Shown: one piece after another, positions 4,271 to 60,967 of the stretch
Position numbering within the stretch: position 1 is the first letter of the stretch
Layout: each line of letters begins with the position of its first letter
Notes under the pieces: model-generated
What the model was told of the DNA's origin: nothing
Database searches by the model: none
Seen by the model: only the letters and a program-made list of their open reading frames with translations
Translations under genes and position numbers: made by a program
NCBI GenBank assembly: GCA_044225935.1
Contig: JBGAHX010000020.1
Location: forward strand, 2,632-66,631
DNA from: Gemmatimonadaceae bacterium
GTDB lineage: Bacteria; Gemmatimonadota; Gemmatimonadetes; Gemmatimonadales; Gemmatimonadaceae
Direction: 5' to 3'
Length of the DNA: 64,000 nucleotides

Positions 4271-4501
4271 CTACGAGGACTTGCTGGCGACGCCGCCCAC
4301 GAGCGCCGCCGCGTCGGCGCCGACATTGGCGCGACGATTCTCGTCGGCGATCTGGGTGACGATTTCCTCCCGCACGATGCTGACGTGCGGCGGCGCCTCG
4401 ATGCCAAGGCGCACACCGCGTCGATCGGAGGCGAGGACGACGATCCGGATGCCGCCTTCGATCACGATGGCGTCCCCGGCGCGTCGGGAAAGGATGAGCA
4501 T
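4271..4501 (-). CDS. csrA: Carbon storage regulator CsrA (flagellar-type)
   Basis: MLILSRRAGDAIVIEGGIRIVVLASDRRGVRLGIEAPPHVSIVREEI is a near-canonical CsrA fold sequence. 4 nt downstream of flgK. Confidence 0.9.
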   Translation of the reverse strand: MLILSRRAGDAIVIEGGIRIVVLASDRRGVRLGIEAPPHVSIVREEIVTQIADENRRANVGADAAALVGGVASKSS

Positions 4502-9156: not shown

Positions 9157-9947
9157 CAGCGAATCATGTTGTTGGCGGTGGACATCATCTCCTCGGCGTT
9201 CTTGATCGCCTTGGAGTTGATCTCGTAGGCGCGCATCGCGGTGATCATGTCGACCATCTCCTGCACGATCTCGACGTTGCTCGACTCGAGGTGTCCCTGC
9301 AGGATGCGCCCCATCCCTTCGTCGGCCGGGAAGCCGACCGTCGGCTGCCCGGACGCCGGAGTCTCGGCGAAGAGGTTCTCACCTAACGACTGGAGCCCCG
9401 ACGGATTCATGAAGCGCGCGAGCTCGAGCTGGCCGAGCTCCTGCTTCTCCACCGTGTTGCCGCCGACCGAGACCGAGATCTTCCCGGTCGTCGAGATCGT
9501 GAGCTCGGTAGCGTCGGTCGGGACCTTGATCCCGGGGACGACGGCGTAGCCGCCGCTGGTGATCAACGTTCCAGTGTCGGAGATGCCAAACGATCCGTCG
9601 CGCGAGTAGGCGATTGTCCCGTTGGGCATCTGGATCTGGAAGAAGCCTTCACCCTCGATCGCGAGGTCGAGCGGGCGCGTGGTCTCTTCGACGGCGCCTT
9701 GCGAGTGCAGGCGCTGCACCGAGGCCAGTCGCGTTCCGCGCCCGACCTGCACCGCCGGCATCGTGTTCGTGTCGGGATTCCCGACGACCGACGCTCCCTG
9801 CACCGTCTGGTAGAGGAGATCCTCGAAGTGCGCGCGCGAACCCTTGAAGCCCGTGGTGTTCACGTTCGCGAGGTTGTTGGCGATGACTTCGGTGCGAAGC
9901 TGCTGCGCCATCATGCCGGTGGCGGACGTGCGGAGGGCGGGGTTCAT
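9156..9947 (-). CDS. flgG: Distal rod protein FlgG
   Basis: MNPALRTSATGMMAQQLRTEVIANNLANVNTTGFK ... LESSNVEIVQEMVDMITAMRAYE; 263 aa. Confidence 0.92.
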   Translation of the reverse strand: MNPALRTSATGMMAQQLRTEVIANNLANVNTTGFKGSRAHFEDLLYQTVQGASVVGNPDTNTMPAVQVGRGTRLASVQRLHSQGAVEETTRPLDLAIEGEGFFQIQMPNGTIAYSRDGSFGISDTGTLITSGGYAVVPGIKVPTDATELTISTTGKISVSVGGNTVEKQELGQLELARFMNPSGLQSLGENLFAETPASGQPTVGFPADEGMGRILQGHLESSNVEIVQEMVDMITAMRAYEINSKAIKNAEEMMSTANNMIR

Positions 9948-9953
9948 GGGGTT

Positions 9954-9990
9954 CTAGAAGACGAGAGGTCAGAAGACGAGAAGACGAGAG
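9954..9990 (-). repeat. Octamer tandem repeat (gene sense CTCGTCTT), interrupted, about 3 units, 6 nt upstream of the flgG start
   Basis: Plus strand reads AGAAGACGAGAGGTC AGAAGACG AGAAGACG AGAGGT. Fills most of the 47 nt flgF-flgG spacer. Confidence 0.9.
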
Positions 9991-9994
9991 GTGC

Positions 9995-10690
9995 CTAACC
10001 AGGCACTTTCCCCAACTCATTCACGATCGTGCTGCGGATGCCGTCGAGGGTCGAGAGGACCTTCTGGGCGTCGGCGAAGTTGCGCTGGATCGAGATCAGG
10101 TCGACGAGCGAGGAAAGCGTGTTGACGTTGCTCCCCTCGAGCTCGCCCTGGCGAATGTCGCGGTCGGAATACGCGACCGACTGCTTTCCGGCATCAGGGA
10201 TGAAGTGCGTACCGCCTTCATGCTGCAGCGCGGCGCCGGCGGCGGGCTTCTCCATGCGGAGGCGGTCGATCTTGATGTTGTCGACGACGACCCATCCGGA
10301 ACGGTCGATCGCGACGGCGGAGCCGGAGACCTTGATCGCCCCCTTCTCCCCCAACAGGCGATTGCCGGTGGTGTCGGTCAGGTACCCCTGCGCATCGACG
10401 CTCCAGGCGCCTCCGCGCGTCCAGCGCTCGCCGTTCGGTGTGTTGACGACGAAGTAGTCCTGGCCGCGTGTGGCGATGTCGAGCGGGTTGCCGGTGGTCT
10501 CGTACGAACCGGCGGTGAAGTCGGTCGCCGCATCGGGGACGGGAACGCCGTCGCCGACGAGGCGGGCGAAGACGCGTTCTCCTTTGAAGCCGGTCGTGTT
10601 GACGTTTGCCAGGTTGTTCGACGCGACTTCCTGACGGCGCTCCCAGTAGCGGAGCGCGTGTGCCGCGCTGGCGATTCCGTCTGTCTTCAT
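9995..10690 (-). CDS. flgF: Proximal rod protein FlgF
   Basis: ASNNLANVNTTGFKGERVF ... LEGSNVNTLSSLVDLISIQRNF; rod-family termini, 231 aa, upstream of flgG. Confidence 0.85.
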   Translation of the reverse strand: MKTDGIASAAHALRYWERRQEVASNNLANVNTTGFKGERVFARLVGDGVPVPDAATDFTAGSYETTGNPLDIATRGQDYFVVNTPNGERWTRGGAWSVDAQGYLTDTTGNRLLGEKGAIKVSGSAVAIDRSGWVVVDNIKIDRLRMEKPAAGAALQHEGGTHFIPDAGKQSVAYSDRDIRQGELEGSNVNTLSSLVDLISIQRNFADAQKVLSTLDGIRSTIVNELGKVPG

Positions 10691-17539: not shown

Positions 17540-17808
17540 CAGCCGACCAACGCGGGAAGGGAGCGGAAGAGGCGCTGCGTGTACTCGACGAGGACCTGCA
17601 GCATCCACGGCAGCCCGACGAGGAAGACAGCGGCCACGCCGAGGAGCTTGGGGAGGAACGAGAGCGTCTGCTCCTGAATCTGCGTCACGGTCTGCAGCAC
17701 GCTCACGAGGAGCCCGATCACCAGCGACACCACGAGCACGGGGCCCGCGACGAGCATCGCGATGAGCATGGCGTTGCGAGCGAGGTCGGTGACAAGCGTG
17801 TAAGACAT
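17539..17808 (-). CDS. fliQ: Flagellar export gate protein FliQ
   Basis: MSYTLVTDLARNAMLIAMLVAGPVLVVSLVIGLLVSVLQTVTQIQEQTLSFLPKL is canonical FliQ. The track ORF extends spuriously through the repeat. Confidence 0.9.
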   Translation of the reverse strand: MSYTLVTDLARNAMLIAMLVAGPVLVVSLVIGLLVSVLQTVTQIQEQTLSFLPKLLGVAAVFLVGLPWMLQVLVEYTQRLFRSLPALVG

Positions 17809-17809
17809 C

Positions 17810-17846
17810 AGAAGACGAGAAGACGAGAAGACGAGAAGACGAGGGG
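17810..17846 (-). repeat. Octamer tandem repeat (gene sense CTCGTCTT x4), 1 nt from the fliQ ATG
   Basis: Plus strand reads AGAAGACG x4 (17810-17841) followed by AGGGG. Occupies 37 of the 46 nt between the fliP stop and the fliQ start. Nearly identical to the copy at 58478-58514. Confidence 0.95.
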
Positions 17847-32767: not shown

Positions 32768-32795
32768 CTCCCGTCCCCCGTCCCCCGTCCGTCTC
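32768..32795 (-). repeat. Heptamer array (plus strand CTCCCGT CCCCCGT CCCCCGT CCGTCTC), G-rich in gene sense
   Basis: Begins at the flgC stop codon and ends 30 nt upstream of the 32737 ATG. Confidence 0.85.
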
Positions 32796-33966: not shown

Positions 33967-35400
33967 CTATTCGTCCGCCACCGCCACCCGCTGCGGACCG
34001 TTCAACTTGTTCCGCAACGTGCGCACGCTGATCCCCAGGAGCTCGGCGGTCTTGGTGCGGTTGCCGCGCGTGAGCTCGAGTGCGCGCTGGATCATCGCCC
34101 GCTCCGCTTCCTCGACGTTGAGCGTCGTGAGGACGATCCCGTTCGGCGGCGTCGCCGCAACCGGCGGCGTCCCATCGACCGGCGTTCCGTTGCGCTGCAA
34201 GGCCTGGCGCACGAGCGGATGTTGCCCGACGGTTGCCATGCGCTGGTGGTCGAACAGGTGCGAGGCGAGTTCGGCGTCGTGCGAGAGAATCACCGCGCGC
34301 TCAACGGCGTGCTGCAGTTCGCGCACGTTCCCCGGCCACGGATAGTCCTGCAGGATCTTGATCGTGTCGGGAGCGATCCCGCTGATCTCCTTCCCCATCT
34401 CGCTCCCCGTTCGCATGGCGAAGCGATAGGCGAGAATGGGGATGTCATCCGGACGATCGCGCAGCGCAGGAATGGCGATCGGCACGACGCTCAATCGATA
34501 GTAGAGATCTTGCCGGAAGTGCCCAGCCGCCGCGAACTCGGCGAGGTTGCGATTCGTCGTCGCGATGACGCGCACGTCCACGCGTATGGAATGCGTCCCG
34601 CCCACGCGCTCGAATTCCTGCTCCTGCAGCACGCGCAGGAGCTTCGACTGCAGATCGAGACGCATCTCCGAGATTTCGTCGAGGAGGAGCGTCCCGCCGT
34701 GCGCGCGCTCGAATGCCCCTTCGACTCGCTTGATCGCACCGGTGAAGGCGCCGCGCTCGTGTCCGAACAATGCGCTCTCGATCAACCCCTCGGGGAGCGC
34801 TGCACAATTCAACTTGATGAACGGCTTGTCGCGACGGTCGCTCTGGTCATGGATCGCGCGGGCAAAGAGTTCCTTCCCCGTTCCGCTCTCGCCTTCCAGG
34901 AGCACCGTCGCGCGCGTCGGGGCGACCATCTGCACCGTCTGCAGGATGCGGCGGATCTGCAGGCTCTCGCCGATGATCTGTCGCTCGTTGCGGAACTCCA
35001 TGACTTCACGCCGCAGCGACTCGTTCTCGCGCCGGAGCCGCACGTACTCCAGCGCCTGTTCCACCGCGAGCTCGAGCTGCTGGGTGCGGACGGGCTTCGT
35101 TATATAGTCGATCGCCCCGGCCTTGATCGCCGCCACGGCGTGCTCGATGCTCGCGTAGCCCGTGAGCATGATCAGCGGGATGTCGTATCCCTCACGCTGC
35201 AGGAGCGAGAGGAACTCGAGCCCGGTGAGGCCCGGCATGCGGTAGTCGGAGATGATCAGGTCGATACTCTCGCGCGAGAGCACCTGGAGCGCCTCCACGA
35301 CGTTGCGGGCACCAGTCGGCTGGTGGCCGGCGCGCGAGAGCGTGTCCTCGAGGATCAGGCCGACGGACGGTTCGTCATCGACGTACAGGATATTCGCCAT
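33967..35400 (-). CDS. Sigma54-dependent response regulator (REC + AAA+ + Fis-type HTH; FleR/FlrC/FlbD-like)
   Basis: REC (ILYVDDEP...LIISDYRMPGLTG), Walker A GESGTGKELFARAIH, GAFTGA sigma54-contact motif, and C-terminal HTH NRTKTAELLGISVRTLRNKL. Confidence 0.9.
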   Translation of the reverse strand: MANILYVDDEPSVGLILEDTLSRAGHQPTGARNVVEALQVLSRESIDLIISDYRMPGLTGLEFLSLLQREGYDIPLIMLTGYASIEHAVAAIKAGAIDYITKPVRTQQLELAVEQALEYVRLRRENESLRREVMEFRNERQIIGESLQIRRILQTVQMVAPTRATVLLEGESGTGKELFARAIHDQSDRRDKPFIKLNCAALPEGLIESALFGHERGAFTGAIKRVEGAFERAHGGTLLLDEISEMRLDLQSKLLRVLQEQEFERVGGTHSIRVDVRVIATTNRNLAEFAAAGHFRQDLYYRLSVVPIAIPALRDRPDDIPILAYRFAMRTGSEMGKEISGIAPDTIKILQDYPWPGNVRELQHAVERAVILSHDAELASHLFDHQRMATVGQHPLVRQALQRNGTPVDGTPPVAATPPNGIVLTTLNVEEAERAMIQRALELTRGNRTKTAELLGISVRTLRNKLNGPQRVAVADE

Positions 35401-35443: not shown

Positions 35444-35533
35444 GGAAGTGCGAGGTCCGGAAGTGCGAGATCGGGAAGTGCGAGATCGGGAAGTGCGAGA
35501 TCGGGAAGTGCGAGATCGGGAAGTGCGAGAAGC
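35444..35533. repeat. Six tandem 15 bp units GGAAGTGCGAGATCG in a divergent regulatory region
   Basis: Units start at 35444, 35459, 35474, 35489, 35504 and 35519. The four central units are identical and the outer two differ by 2-3 nt. The SHFPI-repeat ORFs in the track are artefacts of this array. Confidence 0.95.
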
Positions 35534-39748: not shown

Positions 39749-41254
39749 GTGACCCTCGCCCTGAGCATCGCAGGCACCGAGGCGTCACTCGATGCCATCG
39801 ACGATCCGTCGAGAGCGCAGGCGTTGGTGAGTATCGCACACGCAGCGCTCGACGCGATGGAACAGGACGCGGAAGCTTCTGCTTCCGCCGCGACCGCTCC
39901 GGCCGCGCCGGCGCCGATTCAGGTATCGATCTCGATGCCCGGTGCGATCGTCTCCGCGCCTGCGCCTGCGCCTGCGCCCGTGCCGGCTCGTGCGTCGGCC
40001 GCCGATCGCGGCGCCATATCGATCTCGATCGGTGGAATGGAGCCGCTCCAGCAACAGGATGTGTCCGCGAGCGATGGTCTCGCGCTCGGCGAAATCGGCA
40101 TCGACTGGCAGCTGCGCGGCGATTCCGGGTGGGGCGTGTACGGGACCAACCTCGCTCTCGAGCTCGAGCGTTCGGGGACGCATCTCCCCACAATCTTCGC
40201 GGCCGATACGACCGACTTGTCGCCGGTGGCGCGTTTCCGCCTCGATCGCGCATTGCGCGCGGGTGCGGCGCGTGCAAACGCGCATGCGGGGAGGGCGACG
40301 CCGCTCCCCTTCGACGGGCTCATGCTTCGCGCTCTTGGCAACGACTTCGGGCACGGACCGTTGTGGGAGCAGGTTTCCGCCAGCCGCAACGCGGGCGTCA
40401 TCTTCTTCGAGGATTCTGCCTTCGACGACGCGGCGATGCAGCGCGCACGCGCGCTCGACCTCATCGTCGCCGGCTCGCACTGGAACGCCGAAGTGCTGCG
40501 TGGCGCGGGGCTCGATCACGTCGTCACAGTCCTGCAGGGGATCGATCCCACGATCTTCCACCCCGCGCCAGCCAGCGGGCACCTGGGCGAGCGCTTCGTC
40601 GTCTTCTCCGGCGGAAAGCTCGAGTATCGCAAGGGGCAGGATCTCGTCGTCGCCGCATTCCGTGCATTCCAGGCTCGGCATCCCGACGCGTTGCTCCTGA
40701 CGGCGTGGCACAACAACTGGCCGCAGCTGATCGCCGACCTCGATCTCGCCGGCCACGTGCACGGCGTTCCAACGGTTCGCGACGGTCACCTCGACGTCAC
40801 CTCCTGGCTCGTGTCGAACGGCATCCCGCAGGGCGCCATCCTCGACGTGAGGCGCACTCCGAATGCGATGATGGGACACGTCGTGCGCGAAGCGAATGTC
40901 GCCATCTTCCCCAACCGATGCGAAGGGGGGACGAACCTCGTCGCGATGGAGTGCATGGCCGCCGGCATCCCGACCATCGTCGCGAACAACTCGGGACAGC
41001 GCGACCTGGTGGCAACCGGGGGCGCGATTGCGCTCGAGCAGCAGCGCCCAGTTGCTCACCCCACCCGTCACTTCCGCAGCACCGAGGGGTGGGGCGAGAG
41101 CGACGTGGAGGAGATGGTCGAGGCACTCGAGCGCCTCTACACCGACCGCGCGCGCGCCAGGGAAATCGCCCGAAACGGCGCCGTCGCCCTGCGCGCCATG
41201 AGTTGGAAGAATCAGGTGGGCGAGCTCCTGAGGGTTCTCGCTCCATTGCTCTAG
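39749..41254 (+). CDS. Glycosyltransferase, GT4 (group 1) family, with an Ala/Pro-rich N-terminal region
   Basis: FSGGKLEYRKGQDLVVAAF..., FPNRCEGGTNLVAMECMAAGIPTIV (EX7E-type motif). Exact start uncertain. Confidence 0.7.
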   Translation: MTLALSIAGTEASLDAIDDPSRAQALVSIAHAALDAMEQDAEASASAATAPAAPAPIQVSISMPGAIVSAPAPAPAPVPARASAADRGAISISIGGMEPLQQQDVSASDGLALGEIGIDWQLRGDSGWGVYGTNLALELERSGTHLPTIFAADTTDLSPVARFRLDRALRAGAARANAHAGRATPLPFDGLMLRALGNDFGHGPLWEQVSASRNAGVIFFEDSAFDDAAMQRARALDLIVAGSHWNAEVLRGAGLDHVVTVLQGIDPTIFHPAPASGHLGERFVVFSGGKLEYRKGQDLVVAAFRAFQARHPDALLLTAWHNNWPQLIADLDLAGHVHGVPTVRDGHLDVTSWLVSNGIPQGAILDVRRTPNAMMGHVVREANVAIFPNRCEGGTNLVAMECMAAGIPTIVANNSGQRDLVATGGAIALEQQRPVAHPTRHFRSTEGWGESDVEEMVEALERLYTDRARAREIARNGAVALRAMSWKNQVGELLRVLAPLL

Positions 41255-41286
41255 TCTCCCGTCCCCCGTCTCCCGTCTCCCGTCCC
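41255..41286 (+). repeat. Heptamer array TCTCCCG TCCCCCG TCTCCCG TCTCCCG TCCC, ending 5 nt before the FkbM-methyltransferase ATG
   Basis: Fills the 37 nt spacer between the GT4 stop (41252-41254) and ATG 41292. Confidence 0.9.
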
Positions 41287-41291
41287 AGATC

Positions 41292-42116
41292 ATGCGCCAG
41301 GAAATCAGCATCAACCTCGCGTCACCCAGCGGTCCGCGTCAGCTCAAGCTCCTCCTCGATCCCGAGCAGATGAGCCAGCGCTTCATGCTGAACGACTTCG
41401 GCTCGGGAAAACTCTACGAGTCGGAAACATCGAACTTCATCGGCTCGATCCTTCGGCCGGGCGACACCTTCATCGACATCGGGGCGCACGTCGGCTATTT
41501 CACGATGCTCGCCTCGACCCTCGTGGGACCGACCGGCGCGGTTTACTGCTTCGAGCCCGAGCTCGGGAACTACGGCCACCTTCTCGAGCACATCGAGGTG
41601 AACGGTGCCACCAACGTCCGTCCGTTGCACATGGCGGTTGGAGCTGCGCCAGCGACGGCCGACTTCTTCGTCAATGCCGACAACGATGGCGGGCACGCGC
41701 TTTGGGAAGTGGGACGCCACCCGTTCAACGAGCGCACGCGCAATGCGCCGGTCTCGCGCAAGGTCTTCGTCACCTCGCTCGACCACATCTTCGAGAATCG
41801 CGACATGCGCACCCTCAAGGCGATCAAGATCGACGCCGAGGGGGCGGAGTTCGCGATCCTCGTTGGCGCGCGCGAGCTGCTTCGCCGTACTCGCATTCCA
41901 TTTATAGTCGCCGAGATCAACCGCTTCGGCCTCGAGTCGATGGGCGCGAGCGAGCGGCACGTGCGCGAGTTCATGAGTGATCTGGGTTACGAAACCTACC
42001 TCTTCCAACCCGGTCAATCGTTCCTTCAGCGCCTGCAGTCCGACGAGTCGCCGCAGACGGACTACGTCTTCAACATCCTGTTCCGTCACCCCGAGGCCCC
42101 GGCGATGGCCGCGTGA
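41292..42116 (+). CDS. FkbM-family methyltransferase
   Basis: GDTFIDIGAHVGYFTMLAS, CFEPE..., IKIDAEGAEFAILVGA are typical FkbM-family (SAM-dependent) motifs. Confidence 0.8.
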   Translation: MRQEISINLASPSGPRQLKLLLDPEQMSQRFMLNDFGSGKLYESETSNFIGSILRPGDTFIDIGAHVGYFTMLASTLVGPTGAVYCFEPELGNYGHLLEHIEVNGATNVRPLHMAVGAAPATADFFVNADNDGGHALWEVGRHPFNERTRNAPVSRKVFVTSLDHIFENRDMRTLKAIKIDAEGAEFAILVGARELLRRTRIPFIVAEINRFGLESMGASERHVREFMSDLGYETYLFQPGQSFLQRLQSDESPQTDYVFNILFRHPEAPAMAA

Positions 42117-42143
42117 CGGGAAAGGCGGATTGACAGGGGATTC

Positions 42144-42197
42144 GCCGGCGCGCAACGCGCGCCGGCACTCCCGTCCCCCGTCTCCCGTCTCCCGTCC
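42144..42197 (+). repeat. 10 bp-stem GC hairpin (42144-42166) followed by a heptamer array CTCCCGT CCCCCGT CTCCCGT CTCCCGT CC (42168-42197)
   Basis: GCCGGCGCGC-AAC-GCGCGCCGGC, then a direct copy of the array found at 41255-41286. Confidence 0.85.
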
Positions 42198-42218
42198 GAT
42201 CTTTTCTTTCAGACTTTC

Positions 42219-42326: not shown

Positions 42327-43421
42327 ATGCGTATCAACACGAACGTCAGCGCGCTGCGCGCGCAGGGCAACCTTACCCGCGTCAACGAGCAGATCTCCTC
42401 GTCGATGGCGAAGTTGTCCAGCGGTTTCCGCATCACGCGTGCGGCTGACGACTCGGCCGGTTTGGGTATCGCCAACGTCCTGCGCGCGGACATCCGCTCG
42501 CTCGGGCAGGCGGCGCGCAACTCGGAGCAGGCGAACTCGGTGTTGAACATCGCCGAAGGCGCGTCGGGCACGATCCAGAAGATGCTCGAGCGTATGAAGG
42601 AGCTCGCGTCGCAGGCGGCGTCGGACAACGTGGACTCGGCTGGTCGTAGCCGCATCACGACGGAGTATCAGGCGCTCCGGAACGAAATCGACCGCACCGT
42701 CTCCACGGTGAAGTTCCAGGGCAACACGCTGCTCAACGGCGCCTTCGGTGCCACGATCGACTCCGCGTCGACGGCTCTCGGCGCCTCGACGGGCGTGTAC
42801 AACGTCCGCCTCACTGGTGCGGGCACCGGCGCGCTCACGCTGTCGTCGGGCGGTAGCGTTGTCACCCTGACCAACGGTTCCACCTCGCAGACCCTCGGTG
42901 TCACCGCAGGCTCCAAGCAGACGCTCAACTTCACGTCGCTCGGCGTCACGATCGACACCAACCAGGCGGTCACCGCTTCCTCGATCGCCGGCAACATCAC
43001 GGTTGGCGCCAGCACTGGTACGTTCCTCGTTTCGTCGTCGGGCCAGTACAGCGGCAACGACCAGATCTCGATCTCCGGTTCTTCGCTCGACCTCCGCGCG
43101 TCGACGCTCACGGTGAACACCGACCCGACCACGCTGGCCAATGCGCAGTCCGCGCTCAGCGAAATCGACGTCGCCATCACCAACGTCAACGTCGCCCTCG
43201 GCGTGATCGGTTCGCTCCAGAGCCGTATCGACGTGGCGACGGAGAATGTCCGCACCACGATCCAGAACTTCAGCGCCGCCGAGTCCACGATCCGTGACCT
43301 CGACATGGCGAGCGAGATGACCACGTTCACCAAGAACCAGGTGCTCTCGCAGGCTGGTACCGCGATGCTGGCCCAGGCCAACTCGGCTGGACAGAGCATC
43401 CTCACCCTGCTCCGCGGCTAA
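42327..43421 (+). CDS. fliC: Flagellin
   Basis: MRINTNVSALRAQGNLTRVNEQISSSMAKLSSGFRITRAADDSAGLGIA ... LSQAGTAMLAQANSAGQSILTLLRG. AAGGAG Shine-Dalgarno 9 nt upstream. Confidence 0.95.
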   Translation: MRINTNVSALRAQGNLTRVNEQISSSMAKLSSGFRITRAADDSAGLGIANVLRADIRSLGQAARNSEQANSVLNIAEGASGTIQKMLERMKELASQAASDNVDSAGRSRITTEYQALRNEIDRTVSTVKFQGNTLLNGAFGATIDSASTALGASTGVYNVRLTGAGTGALTLSSGGSVVTLTNGSTSQTLGVTAGSKQTLNFTSLGVTIDTNQAVTASSIAGNITVGASTGTFLVSSSGQYSGNDQISISGSSLDLRASTLTVNTDPTTLANAQSALSEIDVAITNVNVALGVIGSLQSRIDVATENVRTTIQNFSAAESTIRDLDMASEMTTFTKNQVLSQAGTAMLAQANSAGQSILTLLRG

Positions 43422-52345: not shown

Positions 52346-52419
52346 TCGGGGCGACTGGATTTGAACCAGCGACCTCCTGCTCCCGAAGCAGGCGCGCTAC
52401 CGGGCTACGCTACGCCCCG
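52346..52419 (-). tRNA. tRNA-Pro (anticodon CGG)
   Basis: Minus-strand CGGGGCG-TA-GCGT...CCTGC-TTCGGGA-GCAGG...GCTGG-TTCAAAT-CCAGT-CGCCCCG-A cloverleaf. Confidence 0.9.
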
Positions 52420-52446
52420 AAACTACCACTTCCACATCTTATAGTA

Positions 52447-52520
52447 TGCGCCCAGAGAGACTCGAACTCCCAACCTTCTGATCCGTAGTCAGATGCTCTA
52501 TCCAATTGAGCTATGGGCGC
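52447..52520 (-). tRNA. tRNA-Arg (anticodon ACG)
   Basis: Minus-strand GCGCCCA-TA-GCTC-AATTGGATA-GAGC-A-TCTGA-CTACGGA-TCAGA-AGGTT-GGGAG-TTCGAGT-CTCTC-TGGGCGC-A. Confidence 0.9.
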
Positions 52521-52731
52521 CGACGATAAGCGCTTCGTGCACCAGCTTTGCCCTTCGCAATCCGTGATTCGCGGCGCAGGATCCACCGCGACCGTCACGG
52601 CGAAGACCGCGGAAAGTAGACACCCCTCAGAGGGGCGTCAAGTGAGACAAAACCCCGTCTCGAACCACGTGCCTCGTACCTGCGTGCACCACTCTCCAAA
52701 CAAAGTCGCCCTCGGCGATGCCGAGGGCGCA

Positions 52732-52805
52732 TGGGCGGTACAAGACTCGAACTTGTGACCTCCACGATGTCAACGTGGCGCTCTAACCAACTGAGCTAAC
52801 CGCCC
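52732..52805 (-). tRNA. tRNA-Val (anticodon GAC)
   Basis: Minus-strand GGGCGGT-TA-GCTC-AGTTGGTTA-GAGC-G-CCACG-TTGACAT-CGTGG-AGGTC-ACAAG-TTCGAGT-CTTGT-ACCGCCC-A. Confidence 0.9.
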
Positions 52806-52883
52806 GATACAACGCGTGCGCCGAGAACTTTTTCGAGCTCCGATACGTTCGTACCAAAGCTCTCATTGGCGCGCCGCGCCGAG

Positions 52884-52957
52884 AAGCGGGAAACGGGACT
52901 CGAACCCGCGACCCCAACCTTGGCAAGGTTGTGCTCTACCAACTGAGCTATTCCCGC
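52884..52957 (-). tRNA. tRNA-Gly (anticodon GCC)
   Basis: Minus-strand GCGGGAA-TA-GCTC-AGTTGGTA-GAGC-A-CAACC-TTGCCAA-GGTTG-GGGTC-GCGGG-TTCGAGT-CCCGT-TTCCCGC-T. Confidence 0.9.
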
Positions 52958-53072
52958 GAACCGCAACTCCACCTGACGTTCACTTGCCTTGGACGCATCA
53001 CGCTCGTGAGCTGCAACCAATCTCGCCAGCGTTCTTGCATCACGGTATCCAGGTCGAACGCCTTCTCGACCA

Positions 53073-53145
<73 letters not shown>

Positions 53146-53401: not shown

Positions 53402-54289
53402 ATGACTGACGTGAAGCGCCGCCGTCGCCGGACGACCCCACAGGGGATCGCGCCGAGCGAACCGGAGCGTGACATTCTCGACCAGTACCTTTACGAGGTC
53501 AGCACGTATCCGCTGCTCAAGGCCGCGGAGGAGATCGAGCTCGCCCGGAAGATTCGCGCGGGCGATCAGGACGCGTTGCAGGAACTGGTGAAGCGCAACC
53601 TGCGCTTCGTCATCTCCGTCGCCAAGAAGTACCAGAACCGTGGTCTCCCGCTCATCGACTTGATCGGCGAAGGGAACGTCGGTCTCCTCACCGCTGCGCG
53701 AAAGTTCGATCCCGACCAAGGCGTGAAGTTCATCTCGTACGCCGTGTGGTGGATTCGTCAGGCGATCCTGTCGTCGCTCGCACGCCAGGGACGCACGGTG
53801 CGCGTCCCGCTCAATCGTACGGCCGATCTCTCGCGCATCATCAAGGCCTCGGAGATCCTTCGGCAGAAGCTCCGCCGCGAGCCCACGCCGGAAGAACTCG
53901 CGCAGCTCACCGGTCTCTCGGTCGATGTCGTGCAGTCGCTGGCTGCACTCAACACCGGCGACGTCCGCCTCGATGCACCGATGGATCCGGAAGGCGATCG
54001 CGCGCTCATCGAGCGATTCGTCGCCGACGAAATGCCCGACACCGAGGAAGAAGCGATGAATCGCTTCCTCTCGGACGAGATCGAACTCGCCCTCTCCACG
54101 CTCCCGCCGCGCGACGCAAAGGTCCTGCGTCTCTACTTCGGGCTCGAGGGCGGGCGCGAGCACACGCTCGAGGAAATCGGCTCGATGCTCGGCGTCACCC
54201 GCGAACGCGTCCGCCAGCTGCGGGACCGCGCGCTCAAGCGTCTGCGCGAAGGCGACGTCGGTCGCGCGCTCTCCAGCTTCGCCGCGTGA
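53402..54289 (+). CDS. Sigma70-family sigma factor, short RpoD-like form (no region 1.1)
   Basis: Regions 1.2-4.2 are present: YLYEVSTYPLL, NLRFVISVAKKYQNRGLPLIDLIGEGNVGLLTAARKFD, FISYAVWWIRQAI, TVRVPLN, LEEIGSMLGVTRERVRQLRDRALKRL. The RVPLN form resembles Bacteroidota-type primary sigma factors. Confidence 0.85.
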   Translation: MTDVKRRRRRTTPQGIAPSEPERDILDQYLYEVSTYPLLKAAEEIELARKIRAGDQDALQELVKRNLRFVISVAKKYQNRGLPLIDLIGEGNVGLLTAARKFDPDQGVKFISYAVWWIRQAILSSLARQGRTVRVPLNRTADLSRIIKASEILRQKLRREPTPEELAQLTGLSVDVVQSLAALNTGDVRLDAPMDPEGDRALIERFVADEMPDTEEEAMNRFLSDEIELALSTLPPRDAKVLRLYFGLEGGREHTLEEIGSMLGVTRERVRQLRDRALKRLREGDVGRALSSFAA

Positions 54290-54490
54290 GCCGGTAACAT
54301 CGCGCAGTACGACAGCAATGCAGCATGCACGGGCGAACCGAAAGGTTCGCCCGTTTGCATTGTGCGACACGAGTTACCGCACCCGTTCGCCGTTACACGC
54401 GAGGCACACACCAGCGCGAGTCGCGCGCCCCTTTCGCCGCTCACATTCATGCTGTTGATTGCGGTGGCCGGCATCGTATGCGTTGCTGAG

Positions 54491-54518
54491 CCTCGTCTTC
54501 TCGTCTTCTCGTCTTCAG
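54491..54518 (+). repeat. Octamer tandem repeat CTCGTCTT x3 abutting the TTG start of the ABC ATPase
   Basis: CCTCGTCTT CTCGTCTT CTCGTCTT CAG, then TTG at 54519. Confidence 0.9.
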
Positions 54519-55274
54519 TTGATCTCCTTACAAGGCGTCCACAAGGCGTTCGGCCCAAAGAAAGTGCTGCAGGGCTTCTCCCTCGACGTCGAAGAAGGGG
54601 AGACGATGGTGATCATCGGCTATTCCGGAACCGGAAAGTCGGTGGCGATCAAGCACATCGTGGGACTGCTGGAACCTGACGAGGGACGCGTCGTCGTCGA
54701 TAACCTCGACGTCCCCAAGCTCTCGCGACGCGAACTGTACGCGCTGCGCGCGCGCATTGGCTACGTCTTCCAGTTCGCGGCACTGTTCGACTCGCTCTCC
54801 ATCGGCGAAAACGTCGCGATGGGGCTCCGCAAGCAGGGACAGCTTTCGCTGAAGGAGATCGACGAGCGCGTGCACGAAGTCCTCGAACTCGTCGACCTGC
54901 CTAACGTTCAGGACCGTTTTCCCGCCGAGCTCTCCGGCGGGATGCGCAAGCGAGTCGGTCTCGCACGGGCCATCGCCCTACGCCCGAAATACATCTTGTA
55001 CGATGAGCCGACGACCGGGCTCGATCCCGTCACCAGCGCGGTGATCGACGAGCTCATGGTGCGCATGCGCGAAAAGCTCGGCGTGACCAGCATCGTCATC
55101 ACCCACGACATGCGAAGCGCCTATCGCGTCGGGACGAAGATCGCGATGCTCTACGAAGGGAAAGTGCGCCAGGTCGGAACCGTCGACGAGATCCGCAACA
55201 CCGACGACCCGATCGTGCGGCAGTTCGTCGAAGGACGCCCCGAAGTCGACGCCGAACCTACCCGGGAGGACTGA
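54519..55274 (+). CDS. ABC transporter ATP-binding protein, MlaF/Ttg2A-like (no permease gene adjacent)
   Basis: LISLQGVHKAFG, Walker A GYSGTGKS, signature LSGGMRKRVGLARA, Walker B ILYDEPTTGLD. Start taken at the in-frame TTG 54519, because the upstream part of the track ORF is the repeat. Confidence 0.85.
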   Translation: MISLQGVHKAFGPKKVLQGFSLDVEEGETMVIIGYSGTGKSVAIKHIVGLLEPDEGRVVVDNLDVPKLSRRELYALRARIGYVFQFAALFDSLSIGENVAMGLRKQGQLSLKEIDERVHEVLELVDLPNVQDRFPAELSGGMRKRVGLARAIALRPKYILYDEPTTGLDPVTSAVIDELMVRMREKLGVTSIVITHDMRSAYRVGTKIAMLYEGKVRQVGTVDEIRNTDDPIVRQFVEGRPEVDAEPTRED

Positions 55275-55277
55275 CCG

Positions 55278-55742
55278 GTGTCGCACGGGAGCGGGGTGTC
55301 GGGCGCCGGAGCGCGCGAGGAGGTGTCGGCGGGGGGCGTGGTCGTGCGCATCGAGGACGGGCGCCCGGTCTTCCTCCTCATCCGAGACTCGTATCGCAAC
55401 TGGGGGTTTCCCAAGGGACATCTCGAGAGCGGTGAGACGCCACACGACGCGGCGCTGCGCGAGGTCGCCGAGGAGACTGGGCTCGAAGACCTCCGGCTCC
55501 GCGGGGAAATCGAGACGATCGACTGGTACTTCCGGTTCCGCGGACGCCTCGTGCACAAGGTCTGCCACTTCTTCCTCATGCAGACCGAGAGTGCCGCTAC
55601 ATGTCCGCAGCGGGACGAAGGAATCACGGCCTGTCGCTGGGAGTCGTTCGAGCGCGCCTTCTCGCTCGTGTCGTACGAGAATGCCCGCGAGGTCCTGCGA
55701 CGGGCCTTCGAGATCGTCAATACGCCCAGCTCCGCGTCGTAG
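55278..55742 (+). CDS. NUDIX hydrolase
   Basis: Nudix box GFPKGHLESGETPHDAALREVAEETGL. Confidence 0.85.
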   Translation: MSHGSGVSGAGAREEVSAGGVVVRIEDGRPVFLLIRDSYRNWGFPKGHLESGETPHDAALREVAEETGLEDLRLRGEIETIDWYFRFRGRLVHKVCHFFLMQTESAATCPQRDEGITACRWESFERAFSLVSYENAREVLRRAFEIVNTPSSAS

Positions 55743-55746
55743 TCTC

Positions 55747-56577
55747 ATGACGCACGCGCTCCCCGGGACACCGGTGGCTTTGGCGGTCGTCGTCCTGGCC
55801 AGCCGAGATCGCGCCCGTAACCTCGTCAAGGACGCCTTCCCGCGGCGTCGCACCCGCCTAACGCTCGCGCGAAACATCCGCGAGTTCGAGCGCGCCTTTC
55901 GCACCGGACTGGTAGACGCGGCGCTCGTCGATCTCGGCGGACCCGTGGAGGACGTGATGCGCGCGATCGAACTCGCGCGCGAATTTCCCAGCGCGCCGTT
56001 CTTCGGCCTGACCCCATTCCGCCCGAGCGACGCCGCGTTCTGCGCGCGCGCCGCGACGTTCGACTTCGCCGGACTCCTCGTCGAAGGCGTCGACGATCAC
56101 GTGCTGCGCGAAATCGTCGCGCCCCGAGCCTTCACCACGCGCTTCGCCGAGGCGCTCGCCACTCCCCCCGAATCGCTCCACCTCGAGACGCCACTCCGCG
56201 TTGCGTCGTGGCGGGTGCTCGTCTCGCACGCGGGACGGCCGCTGCATACGGATGTCGTGGCGCGTGAGCTGGGTGTGACCCGGGAGCACCTGAGCCGAGC
56301 CTTCGGTGCCTCCGGCGCCCCCAATCTCAAGCGGGTGATCGACCTCGTACGCCTTGCCGCCGCCGCCGAGCTCTCAAAAAACCCGGGCTACGACGTCGGC
56401 GACGTGGCGCGCGTCCTCGGCTTCGCCTCGTCGTCGCACCTGAGCACCACGTCGCAACGCATCGTCGGGATTCGTCCGACCTCCTTGGCGCGCCTACGAA
56501 CCGTCGACCTGGTCGAGCGCTTCATCCACGGCCGGATGCGGAGCCGGCCCGCGACAGTGAAGGGGCGGCGGGGCTAA
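55747..56577 (+). CDS. AraC-type HTH transcriptional regulator
   Basis: C-terminal VARELGVTREHLSRAF...AAAELSKNPGYDVGDVARVLGFASSSHLSTTSQRIVGIRP is an AraC-family double HTH. Start at the internal ATG 55747. Confidence 0.7.
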   Translation: MTHALPGTPVALAVVVLASRDRARNLVKDAFPRRRTRLTLARNIREFERAFRTGLVDAALVDLGGPVEDVMRAIELAREFPSAPFFGLTPFRPSDAAFCARAATFDFAGLLVEGVDDHVLREIVAPRAFTTRFAEALATPPESLHLETPLRVASWRVLVSHAGRPLHTDVVARELGVTREHLSRAFGASGAPNLKRVIDLVRLAAAAELSKNPGYDVGDVARVLGFASSSHLSTTSQRIVGIRPTSLARLRTVDLVERFIHGRMRSRPATVKGRRG

Positions 56578-56581
56578 CAGG

Positions 56582-56697
<116 letters not shown>

Positions 56698-56846
56698 ATT
56701 GTCTTTCAGCCGCGATTTCGCGCCGGGGGCGAAGCGCAGGAGACCGCGGAGCACACGCAGCAGTCGCCCGCCCGAGCACCCCAGCCCGCCCAAGCCCCTA
56801 CACGAACGAACGGGCACGTCCCATTCGCTTGAAAGTCGACAAACCT

Positions 56847-56862
56847 TGTGATAATTTTCACA
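56847..56862. promoter_or_regulatory. Perfect TGTGA-N6-TCACA palindrome (CRP/FNR-family type site) upstream of atpA
   Basis: TGTGATAATTTTCACA, 47 nt upstream of the atpA ATG, inside the 20 nt palindrome CTTGTGA-TAATTT-TCACAAG. AT-rich island in GC-rich DNA. TTGAAA lies 15 nt upstream of GATAAT. Confidence 0.55.
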
Positions 56863-56908
56863 AGCTAGACCCGATCGCATTTCCGACCTAAACGCTCCGA
56901 TCCTCGTT

Positions 56909-58477
56909 ATGGCCTCCGACACGATCCTTCGCCCAGGCGAAATCAAGGACATTCTCCTCCGCGAAATCGAGGCGGCGGACCTGCACGGACTCGACGTAGA
57001 AGAGGTTGGGACGGTCCTCGAGGTGAAGGACGGCGTGGCCCGTATTTACGGCCTCCGCAAGGCGATGGCCGGCGAGATGCTCGAGATCGCGTCCTCCGAA
57101 ACGGGGAACAAGATCACCGCGCTCACGCTGAACCTCGAAGAGGACAACATCGGCGCGGTGGTCCTCGGTGACTACCTGCAGCTCAAGGAGGGGGACGAGG
57201 TGCGGCGCACCGGGCGCGTGCTCGAAGTCCCGGTCGGTCCCGCCCTCGTCGGGCGCGTGGTCGATCCGCTCGGCCGTCCGGTCGACGGCAAGGGCTCGAT
57301 CGAGACCCCGCACACCCGCCTCGTCGAATCGCCGGCTCCCGGCATCATCGTTAGGCAGCCGGTGAAGGAGCCGATGCAGACCGGGATCAAGTCGATCGAC
57401 GCGATGATCCCGATCGGGCGCGGCCAGCGCGAGCTCATCATCGGCGACCGCGGCACCGGCAAGACGGCGATCGCGATCGACACGATCATCAACCAGAAGG
57501 GACAAGGGGTCATCTGCGTCTACGTCGCCATCGGGCAGAAGGCGTCGACGGTTGCCTCGGTGGTCGAGAAGCTCCGCCAGCAGGGGGCGATGGACTACAC
57601 CATCGTCGTCGTCGCCTCCGCGTCGGACCCGGCCCCGATGCAGTACATCGCCCCCTACACGGGCGCAGCGATGGCCGAGTACTTCATGTACGACGAAGGA
57701 CAGGCGACGCTTTGTGTGTACGATGACCTGTCCAAGCAGGCCGCCGCGTATCGCCAGCTCTCGCTCGTGCTCCGCCGCCCGCCGGGACGCGAGGCATTCC
57801 CGGGCGACGTCTTCTATCTCCACTCCCGTCTCCTCGAGCGCGCCGCCAAGTTGCGCGAGGATCAGGATGTGGTCGACGGCAAGACGATCAAGAAGCCGGG
57901 TGGCTCGCTCACCGCGCTCCCGATCATCGAGACGCAGGCCGGTGACGTGTCGGCCTACATCCCGACGAACGTCATCTCGATCACCGACGGACAGATCTTC
58001 CTCGAGACCGACCTGTTCTTCTCGAACGTGCGCCCGGCGATCAACGCCGGTATCTCGGTGTCGCGCGTCGGTGGTTCGGCGCAGATCAAGGCCATGCGCT
58101 CGGTTGCCGGCCGCCTCCGCCTCGACCTCGCGCAGTACCGCGAGCTCGAAGCCTTCGCCGCGTTTGCCTCGGACCTCGACGCCGCCACCAAGAAGCAGCT
58201 CGAGCGCGGCGCCCGCACGGTGGAAGTGCTCAAGCAGCCGCAGTACGCGCCGATGCCGGTCGAGCAGCAGGTGATGATCATCTACGCGGTCTCGAACGGC
58301 TTCATCGACGACGTCCCGGTCGCCAAGGTGCGCGAGTGGGAGCGCGGCTTCCTCGACTTCATGGCCGCGCAGTGGCCCCAGGTCGGCGACGCCATCCGCA
58401 AGGAGAAGGTCCTCTCGAAGGACACGGAGGCGACCCTCAAGAACGGCATCGCCGCCTATAAGAAGGTAGCGAAGTGA
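56909..58477 (+). CDS. atpA: F1 ATP synthase alpha subunit
   Basis: Walker [16 protein letters not shown] and overall canonical alpha sequence; 522 aa. Confidence 0.97.
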
Positions 58478-58514
58478 CCCCTCGTCTTCTCGTCTTCTCG
58501 TCTTCTCGTCTTCT
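58478..58514 (+). repeat. Octamer tandem repeat CCC + CTCGTCTT x4 + CT, ending 6 nt before the atpG ATG
   Basis: Fills the atpA-atpG spacer. About 40 nt nearly identical (in gene sense) to the fliP-fliQ spacer. Confidence 0.95.
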
Positions 58515-58520
58515 GATCTA

Positions 58521-59381
58521 ATGGCCAAAGGCAGAGAGCTCAAAGCCCGCATCAAGACGACCGAGAACACCCGGAAGATCACGCGCACGCTCGAGATGGT
58601 CTCCACCTCGAAGATGAAGCGTGCGCAGGATCGGGTGCACGCTGCGCGGCCGTATGCGAACGCGCTCTCCGATGTGATCTCGTCGCTCTACACGCCGGAA
58701 CTCGCCGAGCAGTTCCCGCTCCTGCGCCAACCGGCCAAGCCGAAGCGCGCGGCGGTGATCCTGCTCAACTCCAATCGCGGCCTTGCCGGTGGCTTCAACG
58801 CCAACCTGATCAAGGAAGCGCGCGCGCAGCTGCAACGCCTGCGCGCGCAGGGGATCGAGACGGAGCTCCACGTCTCGGGGCGAAAAGGGATCGGCTACTT
58901 CCGGTACCTCGGTGAGCCGCTTGCCGCCGCGCGGACCGACATCACCGACCGCCCCACCGCCGAAGACGCGGCCTCGCTGGTCGAGGGGCTGATGCAGCGC
59001 TTCGTCGACGGTTCGCTCGACGCCGTTTACGTCGTCTACGCCCACTTCAAGTCGGTCCTGAGCTGTCCCCCGACCACCACGCAGGTTCTCCCCGTCGTGC
59101 CACCGGAACGCACCGGGCCGGCGCCGGACTACCTGCTCTTCCCGTCGGCTGCCGAGATTTTGACCGAACTCCTCCCGTCCTACGTGCGCAACACGATGTA
59201 CCGCACGCTGGTCGAGACGGCTGCGGCCGAGCACATCGCACGTCGTACCGCCATGAAGAATGCGACCGACAACGCGACCGAGCTGTTGTCCGTTTATCGC
59301 CGCACGTATAACCGCGCCAGGCAGGCGCAGATAACTCAAGAGATCGCGGAAATCGTGGGCGGCGCGGCCGCGTTGGAGTAG
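58521..59381 (+). CDS. atpG: F1 ATP synthase gamma subunit
   Basis: MAKGRELKARIKTTENTRKITRTLEMVSTSKMKRAQ ... ITQEIAEIVGGAAAL. Confidence 0.95.
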   Translation: MAKGRELKARIKTTENTRKITRTLEMVSTSKMKRAQDRVHAARPYANALSDVISSLYTPELAEQFPLLRQPAKPKRAAVILLNSNRGLAGGFNANLIKEARAQLQRLRAQGIETELHVSGRKGIGYFRYLGEPLAAARTDITDRPTAEDAASLVEGLMQRFVDGSLDAVYVVYAHFKSVLSCPPTTTQVLPVVPPERTGPAPDYLLFPSAAEILTELLPSYVRNTMYRTLVETAAAEHIARRTAMKNATDNATELLSVYRRTYNRARQAQITQEIAEIVGGAAALE

Positions 59382-59387
59382 GCGTTA

Positions 59388-60967
<1,580 letters not shown>

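Follow-up and report, generated by a model that had tools for sequence, protein, structure and literature searches.

Pyrimidine-rich octamer arrays at gene boundaries of Gemmatimonadaceae: possible leaders for Shine-Dalgarno-independent translation

Four tandem arrays of the pyrimidine-rich octamer CTCGTCTT stand directly before the start codons of fliQ, atpG, flgG and an ABC ATPase gene in a 64,000-nt stretch of Gemmatimonadaceae contig JBGAHX010000020.1 (the whole of this stretch is called the window below). They belong to a dispersed short-tandem-repeat family of the Gemmatimonadaceae, whose sites persist among related genomes while the repeat unit turns over. We propose, with a probability of about one half, that the arrays provide an unstructured leader, free of start and stop codons, that would allow initiation without a Shine-Dalgarno (SD) sequence or scanning by ribosomes after termination on the preceding gene.

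Results

Four octamer arrays precede start codons in the window

The arrays had been noticed in an earlier reading of the window from its letters (the sequence-only reading). Their placement before these four genes was confirmed here, with exact arrays 1-8 nt before the starts and Pfam support for the genes. The four arrays are:

17810..17846, minus strand: fliP-fliQ array, CCC + (CTCGTCTT)x4 + CT; occupies the spacer, 1 nt from the fliQ ATG at 17808.
58478..58514, plus strand: atpA-atpG array, CCC + (CTCGTCTT)x4 + CT; occupies the spacer, 6 nt from the atpG ATG at 58521.
9956..9990, minus strand: interrupted flgF-flgG array, CT(CTCGTCTT)x2 CTGAC CTCTCGTCTTCT; 8 nt from the flgG ATG at 9947.
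54491..54518, plus strand: ABC ATPase array, C(CTCGTCTT)x3 CAG; adjoins the TTG at 54519, at the 3' end of a 229-nt intergenic region after a sigma-70 gene.

Read in gene order, the fliP stop codon (17857-17855) is followed by CCAGCGCACCC, (CTCGTCTT)x4, CTG and the fliQ ATG, the first unit lying 11 nt from the stop. The atpA stop, ending at 58477, is followed by CCC, (CTCGTCTT)x4, CTGATCTA and the atpG ATG, and the flgF stop (9995-9997) by (CTCGTCTT)x2, CTGAC, CTCTCGTCTTCT (one and a half units), AGAACCCC and the flgG ATG. Unit counts in the window are 4 before fliQ and atpG, 3 before the ABC ATPase and 2+1.5 before flgG. The fliQ and atpG copies have 41 identical bases in common (A CCC [unit]x4 CTGAT), in agreement with the near-identity over about 40 nt described previously; the distance to the flgG ATG had been given as 6 nt and was corrected to 8 nt. 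All four arrays had also been described as nearly entire intergenic spacers. The gene 5' of the ABC ATPase encodes a sigma-70 factor and ends 229 nt away, so that this array is a leader copy and not a short intercistronic spacer.

The window contains nine occurrences of the 16-mer CTCGTCTTCTCGTCTT, which corresponds to two units, where 0.06 would be expected, and none of 100 shuffles reached nine. Tandem Repeats Finder (TRF) recovered the same four arrays and no further one of this unit. Pfam matches at the array neighbours were FliQ, FliO/FliP, FlgG, FlgF, AtpA, AtpG and an ABC ATPase. Because the alignments begin at residues 2-6 for FliQ, FlgG and AtpG and at residue 17 for the ABC ATPase, the proposed start codons appear well placed, and the TTG start of the ABC ATPase is also the one chosen in a 99.1%-identical assembly whose genes were called independently. 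A coding repeat was rejected, since the Pfam alignments set the starts 3' of the arrays, as was a CRISPR-like array, since the units run head-to-tail without spacers.

The arrays cover the last 25-45 nt before the start codons. As RNA, the CTCGTCTT array is written (CUCGUCUU)4, and the purine strand of the unit is AAGACGAG. The CU tract of the four copies has no A, one G per 8 nt, and no start or stop codon in any frame. The four spacers do not resemble Rho-independent terminators, having no significant structure (z -0.4 to +0.4). A promoter and terminator scan of positions 54200-59700 found no promoter-like site, and no terminator at the ABC leader or the atpA-atpG array. Rfam at gathering threshold matched six tRNAs only in the window, and nothing at the arrays.

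A dispersed repeat family

We scanned one genome per bacterial or archaeal species for three consecutive units (a 24-mer) and obtained at least 92 stretches. Among the matches listed, 81 of 92 stretches came from 12 Gemmatimonadota metagenome-assembled genomes (MAGs), mostly Gemmatimonadaceae, and the two richest MAGs held at least 16 and at least 23 loci. The four window arrays are thus members of a dispersed family of this lineage; the recurrence of one unit at many sites and in many genomes upholds the earlier view that they are not random microsatellites. Besides CTCGTCTT, the family includes the variants CCCGTCTT and CTCGTCCT, together with CYCCCGT as a sister heptamer. TRF and regular expressions, applied to the window and 81 loci, identified 105 arrays, only 5 of them inside predicted genes. 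Boundary repeats of the Xanthomonas and Nostoc type (see below) favour about four units. At the fetched loci, 59 arrays had 3 units, 17 had 4 and 15 had 5 or more, a distribution biased by the choice of loci with at least 3 units. Degenerate in-register units, used as a sign of growth from one array end, were found 26 times on the 5' side and 24 times on the 3' side, indicating no polarity.

The FlgG of the window is 98% identical to that of MAG JBDTUA01. Two other loci (L013 and L074) were considered as flgG orthologues and rejected, their downstream genes being unrelated to flgG; the common tail '...TCTAGAACCC(C)ATGAA' does not reflect orthology. We found no paper on such repeats in Gemmatimonadota, nor, in the library searched, one combining Gemmatimonas, 'tandem repeat' and 'intergenic'. 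In some Gemmatimonadota, the atpA-atpG spacers of metagenome relatives (L109, L123) carry CCCCAGT-like and (AAGTGGG)n...(CCCACTT)n arrays; CCCCAGT is the classical STRR1 unit of cyanobacteria.

Shine-Dalgarno content and structure of initiation regions

An SD core, defined as GGAG, GAGG or AGGA at positions -20..-4, was absent from fliQ, atpG, flgG and the ABC ATPase gene; the CTCGTCTT unit is itself pyrimidine-rich and resembles the anti-SD, so that the arrays do not qualify as SD elements, which are complementary to the CCUCC core of the 16S rRNA 3' end and lie 4-13 nt before the start. The earlier description of SD-less starts was therefore accurate, as was that of a clear SD before fliC (AAGGAG), but the feature is not distinctive: only 22 of the 67 genes called in the window have an SD core. 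Such a core precedes 85 of 335 genes without arrays (about 25%, with a motif peak at -14 to -8 and a coding background of 14%) and 1 of 25 array-preceded genes. Given that only about a quarter of genes have an SD, its absence does not set the array genes apart. In the table of a published survey, the value for Gemmatimonadetes is 22, taken here as the SD percentage.

The 70-nt initiation region had a minimum free energy (MFE) of -7.5 kcal/mol in array genes and -19.0 kcal/mol in other genes (p = 2e-13). This low structure is a consequence of the CU-rich composition and is not independent evidence of function.

According to the leader role that we propose, the arrays would be transcribed as nearly the entire intercistronic spacer or leader, and would give the downstream gene an SD-less, A-free leader without competing start or stop codons or predicted structure. 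The CU tract might let 30S subunits load without SD pairing, in the manner of S1-dependent or standby sites; alternatively, ribosomes that have terminated on fliP, flgF or atpA might slide to the next start without being trapped. What is required would then be composition and single-strandedness, not a specific motif. S1-dependent pyrimidine- or AU-rich leaders, standby sites and re-initiation involve a single-stranded, G-poor tract 5' of an SD-less start. The window arrays are similar in being tracts predicted to be free of structure and of competing start codons, directly 5' of SD-less starts, and their composition would agree with such a leader. They differ in forming a genome-wide tandem-repeat family, known from sequence, whereas the classical cases are individual leaders. 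An S1-type, sequence-tolerant mechanism would be plausible.

Array polarity follows the nearest open reading frame

Genes in the fetched loci were called with a codon log-odds model that reproduces the window genes, and all 105 arrays were oriented as their CU strand before distances to gene boundaries were taken. A boundary was found 25 nt or less from the 3' end of the CU strand in 81 of 94 arrays, and from its 5' end in 23 of 91. Cases with one end only within 15 nt of a boundary numbered 55 for the 3' end and 3 for the 5' end (binomial p = 2e-13). In the set of 105, the pyrimidine strand points to the nearest open reading frame (ORF) irrespective of the orientation of that ORF. The boundary was a same-strand start codon in 40 arrays, most of them ending 0-11 nt before it, and the stop codon of an opposite-strand gene in 45 of the 85 arrays with two called neighbours, all 45 at 15 nt or less. 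On the mRNA of that gene, the stop-facing arrays read (AAGACGAG)n directly after the stop, which is often TAG, its AG being the first two bases of the array. Seen from the mRNA, CU tracts lie 0-11 nt before starts and AG tracts 0-15 nt after stops, with about equal frequency.

Arrays cluster at ORF boundaries, and CU-oriented copies end 0-11 nt before SD-less starts. The claim of the sequence-only reading that arrays are co-oriented with the downstream gene stands for the four window copies and fails for the family, given the 45 arrays that face opposite-strand stops and the 55 to 3 polarity. The same polarity is obeyed by the heptamer and other families at these loci, which did not guide the fetching. 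It was also obtained with public-pipeline gene calls, where a purine array begins -1 to +1 nt from the stop that it follows and a pyrimidine array leaves 0-8 nt to the start. In the 40 nt on the 5' side of the arrays, hairpins showed no overall enrichment (mean -9.4 kcal/mol, against -11.2 kcal/mol in control intergenic windows); a strong hairpin precedes the array in 4 of 10 cases of the convergent-gene class only. Arrays as terminator U-tracts, which would directly follow a GC-rich hairpin, were rejected, 5' hairpins not being enriched overall.

In public gene calls, some starts at arrays are misplaced (L181 6001-6921; L174 2250-2918, also L175 and L178), as automatic callers find no stop codon within the array. 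The call for the atpG of L181 runs through the array and is 20 codons too long; that for the ABC ATPase starts at a downstream ATG and is 29 codons too short, although the array-abutting TTG is conserved.

A polarity that is blind to gene orientation hints at a DNA-level or mutational cause. The G-rich heptamers of Xanthomonas and Nostoc, related to cyanobacterial STRR sequences, offer the closest parallel. These simple sequence repeats (SSRs), GGGAATC in Xanthomonas and GGGGA(C/T)T in Nostoc, are dispersed head-to-tail and strongly intergenic (Rehm et al., 2015; PMC4692102). They lie 'almost exclusively' nearer to the 5'-neighbouring ORF regardless of its orientation; the non-coding strand carries them upstream of an ORF and the coding strand downstream, at times in overlap with the stop codon (PMC4692102). 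Related species keep them between the same genes, and G-quadruplexes were the explanation that the authors favoured (PMC4692102). Our arrays are alike in their orientation rule, which is identical, in their inverted pairs and dispersed intergenic head-to-tail units, and, at the four window sites, in being kept between the same genes in relatives with variation in length and sequence. They are unlike in phylum (Gemmatimonadota), in an octamer purine strand without GG, and in a switch from heptamer to octamer at fixed sites that involves both arms of a hairpin together.

This parallel bears on the possibility that the arrays are boundary elements of the DNA itself, such as non-B DNA, a site for a nucleoid protein or topoisomerase, or a barrier to replication or transcription. 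Action at the DNA level would explain why gene orientation does not matter: polarity is set by the body of the ORF and not by the direction of transcription, the same rule has been read through DNA or RNA G-quadruplexes in the G-rich heptamers, and inverted arm pairs could form cruciforms. GGG runs do occur in the sister heptamer GACGGGR. The octamer AAGACGAG has no GG and is not pure homopurine, by which G-quadruplexes and H-DNA were both rejected for it; as it obeys the same rule, G-quadruplexes cannot be the cause here. Moreover, no candidate protein is known, and the change of units at fixed sites argues against a sequence-specific DNA binder. We regard a DNA-level boundary element as improbable.

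Sites persist and units turn over

In order to follow individual sites, we used loci fetched through AtpG and FlgG homologues, which were not chosen for repeats, since both members of all-vs-all locus pairs had been fetched for having an array; the retention rate from those pairs was set aside, the sample being selected for arrays. In 7/7 lineages the fliP-fliQ spacer carries a CU-rich array of 7-8-mers in sense orientation, whose end lies 1-9 nt before the start: the octamer CTCGTCTT in four lineages, a CYCCCGT-type heptamer in two and the octamer CCCGTCTT in one. In STL-GEM2 this array is identical (4 units + CTG-ATG) despite 81%-identical flanks. The flgF-flgG spacer has a CU-rich array in 6/7 lineages, with differing units; a new CTCGAATT unit occurs in one relative whose FlgG is 98% identical, and an 8.4-unit array in another lineage. 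A CU-rich array is present in the atpA-atpG spacer of all four lineage groups (W, L174-L179, L180 and L181), with 4 units in the window, 4 or 5 in relatives at 88% nt identity, and a heptamer array at 84%. The ABC leader has a 3-unit array abutting the conserved TTG in 3/4 lineages.

Among deeper relatives (AtpG 54-76% identical), most have a 0-20 nt atpA-atpG spacer and no repeat, and a few have other CU-rich units (CTCACTC x13, CTCAACT, CCCTCTT and CGCACTCC). Persistence of the site together with turnover of the unit would fit either a role based on composition or a mutational process, and the change of unit type at fixed sites argues against a sequence-specific binder.

The arrays could be selfish or neutral microsatellites without a function of their own, generated and homogenised by slippage, inter-array conversion or hairpin template switching and kept only at ORF ends, where and in the orientation in which they do least harm. 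Whole-unit changes in number between strains and the turnover of unit types are what such an origin would produce, as are a polarity that ignores gene orientation, a 9-mer x11.6 array found only in the species of the window, and the many relatives without any atpA-atpG array; the authors of the Xanthomonas and Nostoc study could also identify no role in gene regulation. Tolerance alone, on the other hand, does not predict placement at 0-15 nt and in a single orientation within long intergenic regions; 45/45 stop-facing arrays lie at 15 nt or less. Nor would it lead one to expect arrays to be kept in tight operon junctions (6/7 to 7/7 at the flagellar sites, 3/4 to 4/4 near atp) despite the deletion bias of bacteria, or the fliQ array to stay identical in STL-GEM2. 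We consider tolerated microsatellites a possible explanation, though on balance an unlikely one.

Slippage in unit number had further been suggested to tune expression, in which case the arrays would be contingency (phase-variation) repeats that adjust or switch the downstream gene. Differences of ±1 unit between strains do occur, with 4 and 5 units among contigs encoding one identical AtpG protein. In the 99.1%-identical strain, on the contrary, the unit number is unchanged in every array (8.8 kb with a single gap), and the fliQ array keeps its 4 units as described above. The arrays sit between stop and start codons, so that an 8-nt change cannot shift a reading frame, and their targets are housekeeping genes of ATP synthase and flagellar export. 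The features of phase-variable SSRs (a shift of frame or spacing, a link to surface genes, hypervariability) were not found, the variation being limited to ±1 unit in one population. Phase variation is therefore hardly credible here.

Finally, the arrays might be platforms for a specific RNA-binding regulator (an S1 paralogue, or a Csp, KH or CsrA-like protein) controlling a post-transcriptional regulon that includes flagellar and ATP synthase genes. They do present multivalent, periodic copies exactly over the ribosome-binding region, csrA (Pfam CsrA) is found in orthologous flagellar clusters, and a 76-aa ORF occupies the syntenic position in the window (4271-4501). CsrA binds a GGA motif, which the CU units lack. 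The unit differs between sites of one genome and between close relatives at one site, the genes downstream have no functional relation, and half of the arrays lie after stop codons in the opposite orientation. A dedicated sequence-specific binding platform, as the sequence-only reading had envisaged, is thus very improbable, the same spacers carrying CYCCCGT, CCCGTCTT, CTCGAATT and other units in close relatives.

The same idea has been put forward for the TAACTGA direct repeats of marine Beggiatoaceae, for which binding of S1, Csp or CsrA was proposed (MacGregor, 2015; PMC4679880). These occur in 2-6 tandem copies, mostly intergenic and in forward orientation, 147/170 sets pointing to starts and 12/170 to stops; the largest class ends 1 nt before the start, overlapping the place where the ribosome-binding site is expected (PMC4679880). 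SD sequences are rare in these regions and present in about 25% of genes genome-wide, and the downstream genes are diverse, including essential ones (PMC4679880). The four window arrays and the arrays before same-strand starts (n=40) are similarly forward, most of them ending 0-11 nt before the start, with an SD core in 1/25. In contrast to TAACTGA, which carries TAA and TGA, the unit described here is CU-rich, with no A and no stop codon, and 45/85 arrays abut opposite-strand stops.

Paired arrays and the atpG-atpD hairpin

Unlike the four octamer arrays, which are single and unstructured, the sister heptamer forms a pair of arms in the atpG-atpD spacer. The purine arm pairs with the pyrimidine arm in a stem of about 30 bp (MFE -83.5 kcal/mol, z -6.4). 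The two arms are:

59389..59415, plus strand: heptamer purine-strand arm (GACGGGA)x3.9; starts 7 nt after the atpG stop; 5' arm of the long hairpin.
59493..59523, plus strand: heptamer pyrimidine-strand arm (CYCCCGT)x4; ends 10 nt before the atpD ATG at 59534; 3' arm of the hairpin.

Relatives at 84% nt identity have the same heptamer pair in this spacer, and those at 88% an AG and a CU arm made of octamers around an unrelated loop (fold z -4.7). W, L180 and L181 have heptamers in both arms and L174-L179 have octamers in both, and all these hairpins fold (z -4.7 to -8.2). The joint switch of unit in both arms suggests that pairing is under selection or that correction is templated by the hairpin. 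Terminal inverted repeats, a target-site duplication and an internal sequence conserved among copies mark MITE or foldback-type mobile elements. Inverted arms were found at atpG-atpD and at L004, L006 and L084, with loops unrelated between copies and species and no linked transposase, and inverted octamer pairs with short loops also occur between convergent genes in other MAGs. A small stem with a UUCG tetraloop, GCCGC-UUCG-GCGGC, is conserved right after the atpG-atpD purine arm (window 59416-59440; L181 6951-6970) and is absent from L174.

The REP and BIME elements of enterobacteria are imperfect palindromes of about 35 nt, mobilised by RAYT transposases, whose inverted copies form hairpins able to stabilise upstream mRNA. 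Like them, the arrays are dispersed, lineage-specific, extragenic and presumably transcribed, often just after stops or between cistrons, and inverted copies form hairpins. They differ in being head-to-tail 7-8-mers without an intrinsic palindrome, of which only paired arrays form hairpins.

Taken together, the polar CU and AG arrays might form a general, sequence-tolerant system at cistron junctions, maintained by selection. CU standby or scanning tracks would replace the SD, and AG/CU stems that begin at the stop codon upstream and end at the start codon downstream would be switches opened by ribosomes and so couple the translation of neighbouring cistrons. Selection would have kept the arrays at the junctions of flagellar and ATP synthase genes over a protein divergence of more than 20%, the unit itself being free to change. 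We consider this broader system doubtful.

Discussion

The more limited proposal, of an unstructured leader without start and stop codons that permits SD-independent initiation or post-termination scanning, must be set against several observations. The polarity of the arrays ignores gene orientation and about half of them abut stops, so that a single translational function cannot explain them and a purely translational account is incomplete; tolerated microsatellites and a DNA-level element are serious competitors. In most Gemmatimonadota relatives at 54-76% AtpG identity the atpA-atpG spacer is free of repeats, and the array is therefore not needed to translate atpG. The weak structure of array leaders follows automatically from their CU-rich composition, and SSR loci can persist through slippage equilibrium without selection. 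Lastly, a role of the arrays in translation is one that we infer for uncultured organisms. All these points weigh against the leader role.

The kind of repeat and the translational hypothesis are both already in the literature. The phenomenon itself is robust and conserved, and little studied. What the present data add are new constraints, namely an octamer unable to form G-quadruplexes, fixed sites whose units turn over, and hairpin arms that switch in concert. Gemmatimonadota become the fourth phylum with dispersed 7-8-nt gene-boundary repeats, after cyanobacteria, Xanthomonas and Beggiatoaceae, and the presence of the same orientation rule without G-quadruplex capacity removes the leading structural explanation of that rule. 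If the arrays do serve as leaders, they would show how a high-GC, SD-poor bacterium builds ribosome entry sites inside its operons.

Other repeats and features of the window

The window holds further short pyrimidine-rich tandem families: the heptamer CYCCCGT at five places, a 9-mer x11.6 and a 15-mer x5.8. Besides the two arms of the atpG-atpD hairpin, the heptamer arrays are:

41254..41284, plus strand: heptamer array (GTCTCCC/CCCGTCY)x4.4; begins on the upstream stop codon and ends 7 nt before the ATG at 41292.
42168..42197, plus strand: heptamer array x4; directly 3' of a GC palindrome (42136-42160) in a terminator-like layout, 129 nt before the flagellin ATG.
32770..32790, plus strand: heptamer array x3; purine-rich on the gene (minus) strand, immediately 3' of the TAG stop of the upstream gene.

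The stretch 42136-42210, which separates the gene at 41292-42116 from the flagellin gene at 42327, contains in this order the GC palindrome GCCGGCGCGCAACGCGCGCCGGC, the heptamer array and TCTTTTCTTTC. A junction '...GCGCCGGCA-CTCCCGTC' is common to several heptamer arrays at other loci. The 15-mer array (CTCGCACTTCCCGAT on the minus strand) lies at 35444-35530, with 5.8 copies and 97% match, and ends 43 nt before the ATG at 35400.

The 9-mer array (CCGCGKTCT) x11.6 is located at 56589-56692, on the upstream side of the atpA promoter region. The 99.1%-identical strain (L001) has it and L174, L180 and L181 lack it, and it looks like a recent expansion. It adjoins the upstream stop in CU orientation and is an exception to the polarity rule.

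The tRNAs that are the sole Rfam matches comprise a five-tRNA cluster at 52346-53145 on the minus strand and one further tRNA at 844-917; according to Rfam, the organism's own 16S rRNA lies outside the window. A perfect palindrome of the CRP/FNR type, TGTGA-TAATTT-TCACA, is found at 56847-56862; a TTGAAA hexamer (56829-56834) lies upstream of it, and the atpA ATG follows after 47 nt. This block is kept in all relatives compared, the remaining intergenic region being divergent, and it may be an operator of the atpAGDC operon.

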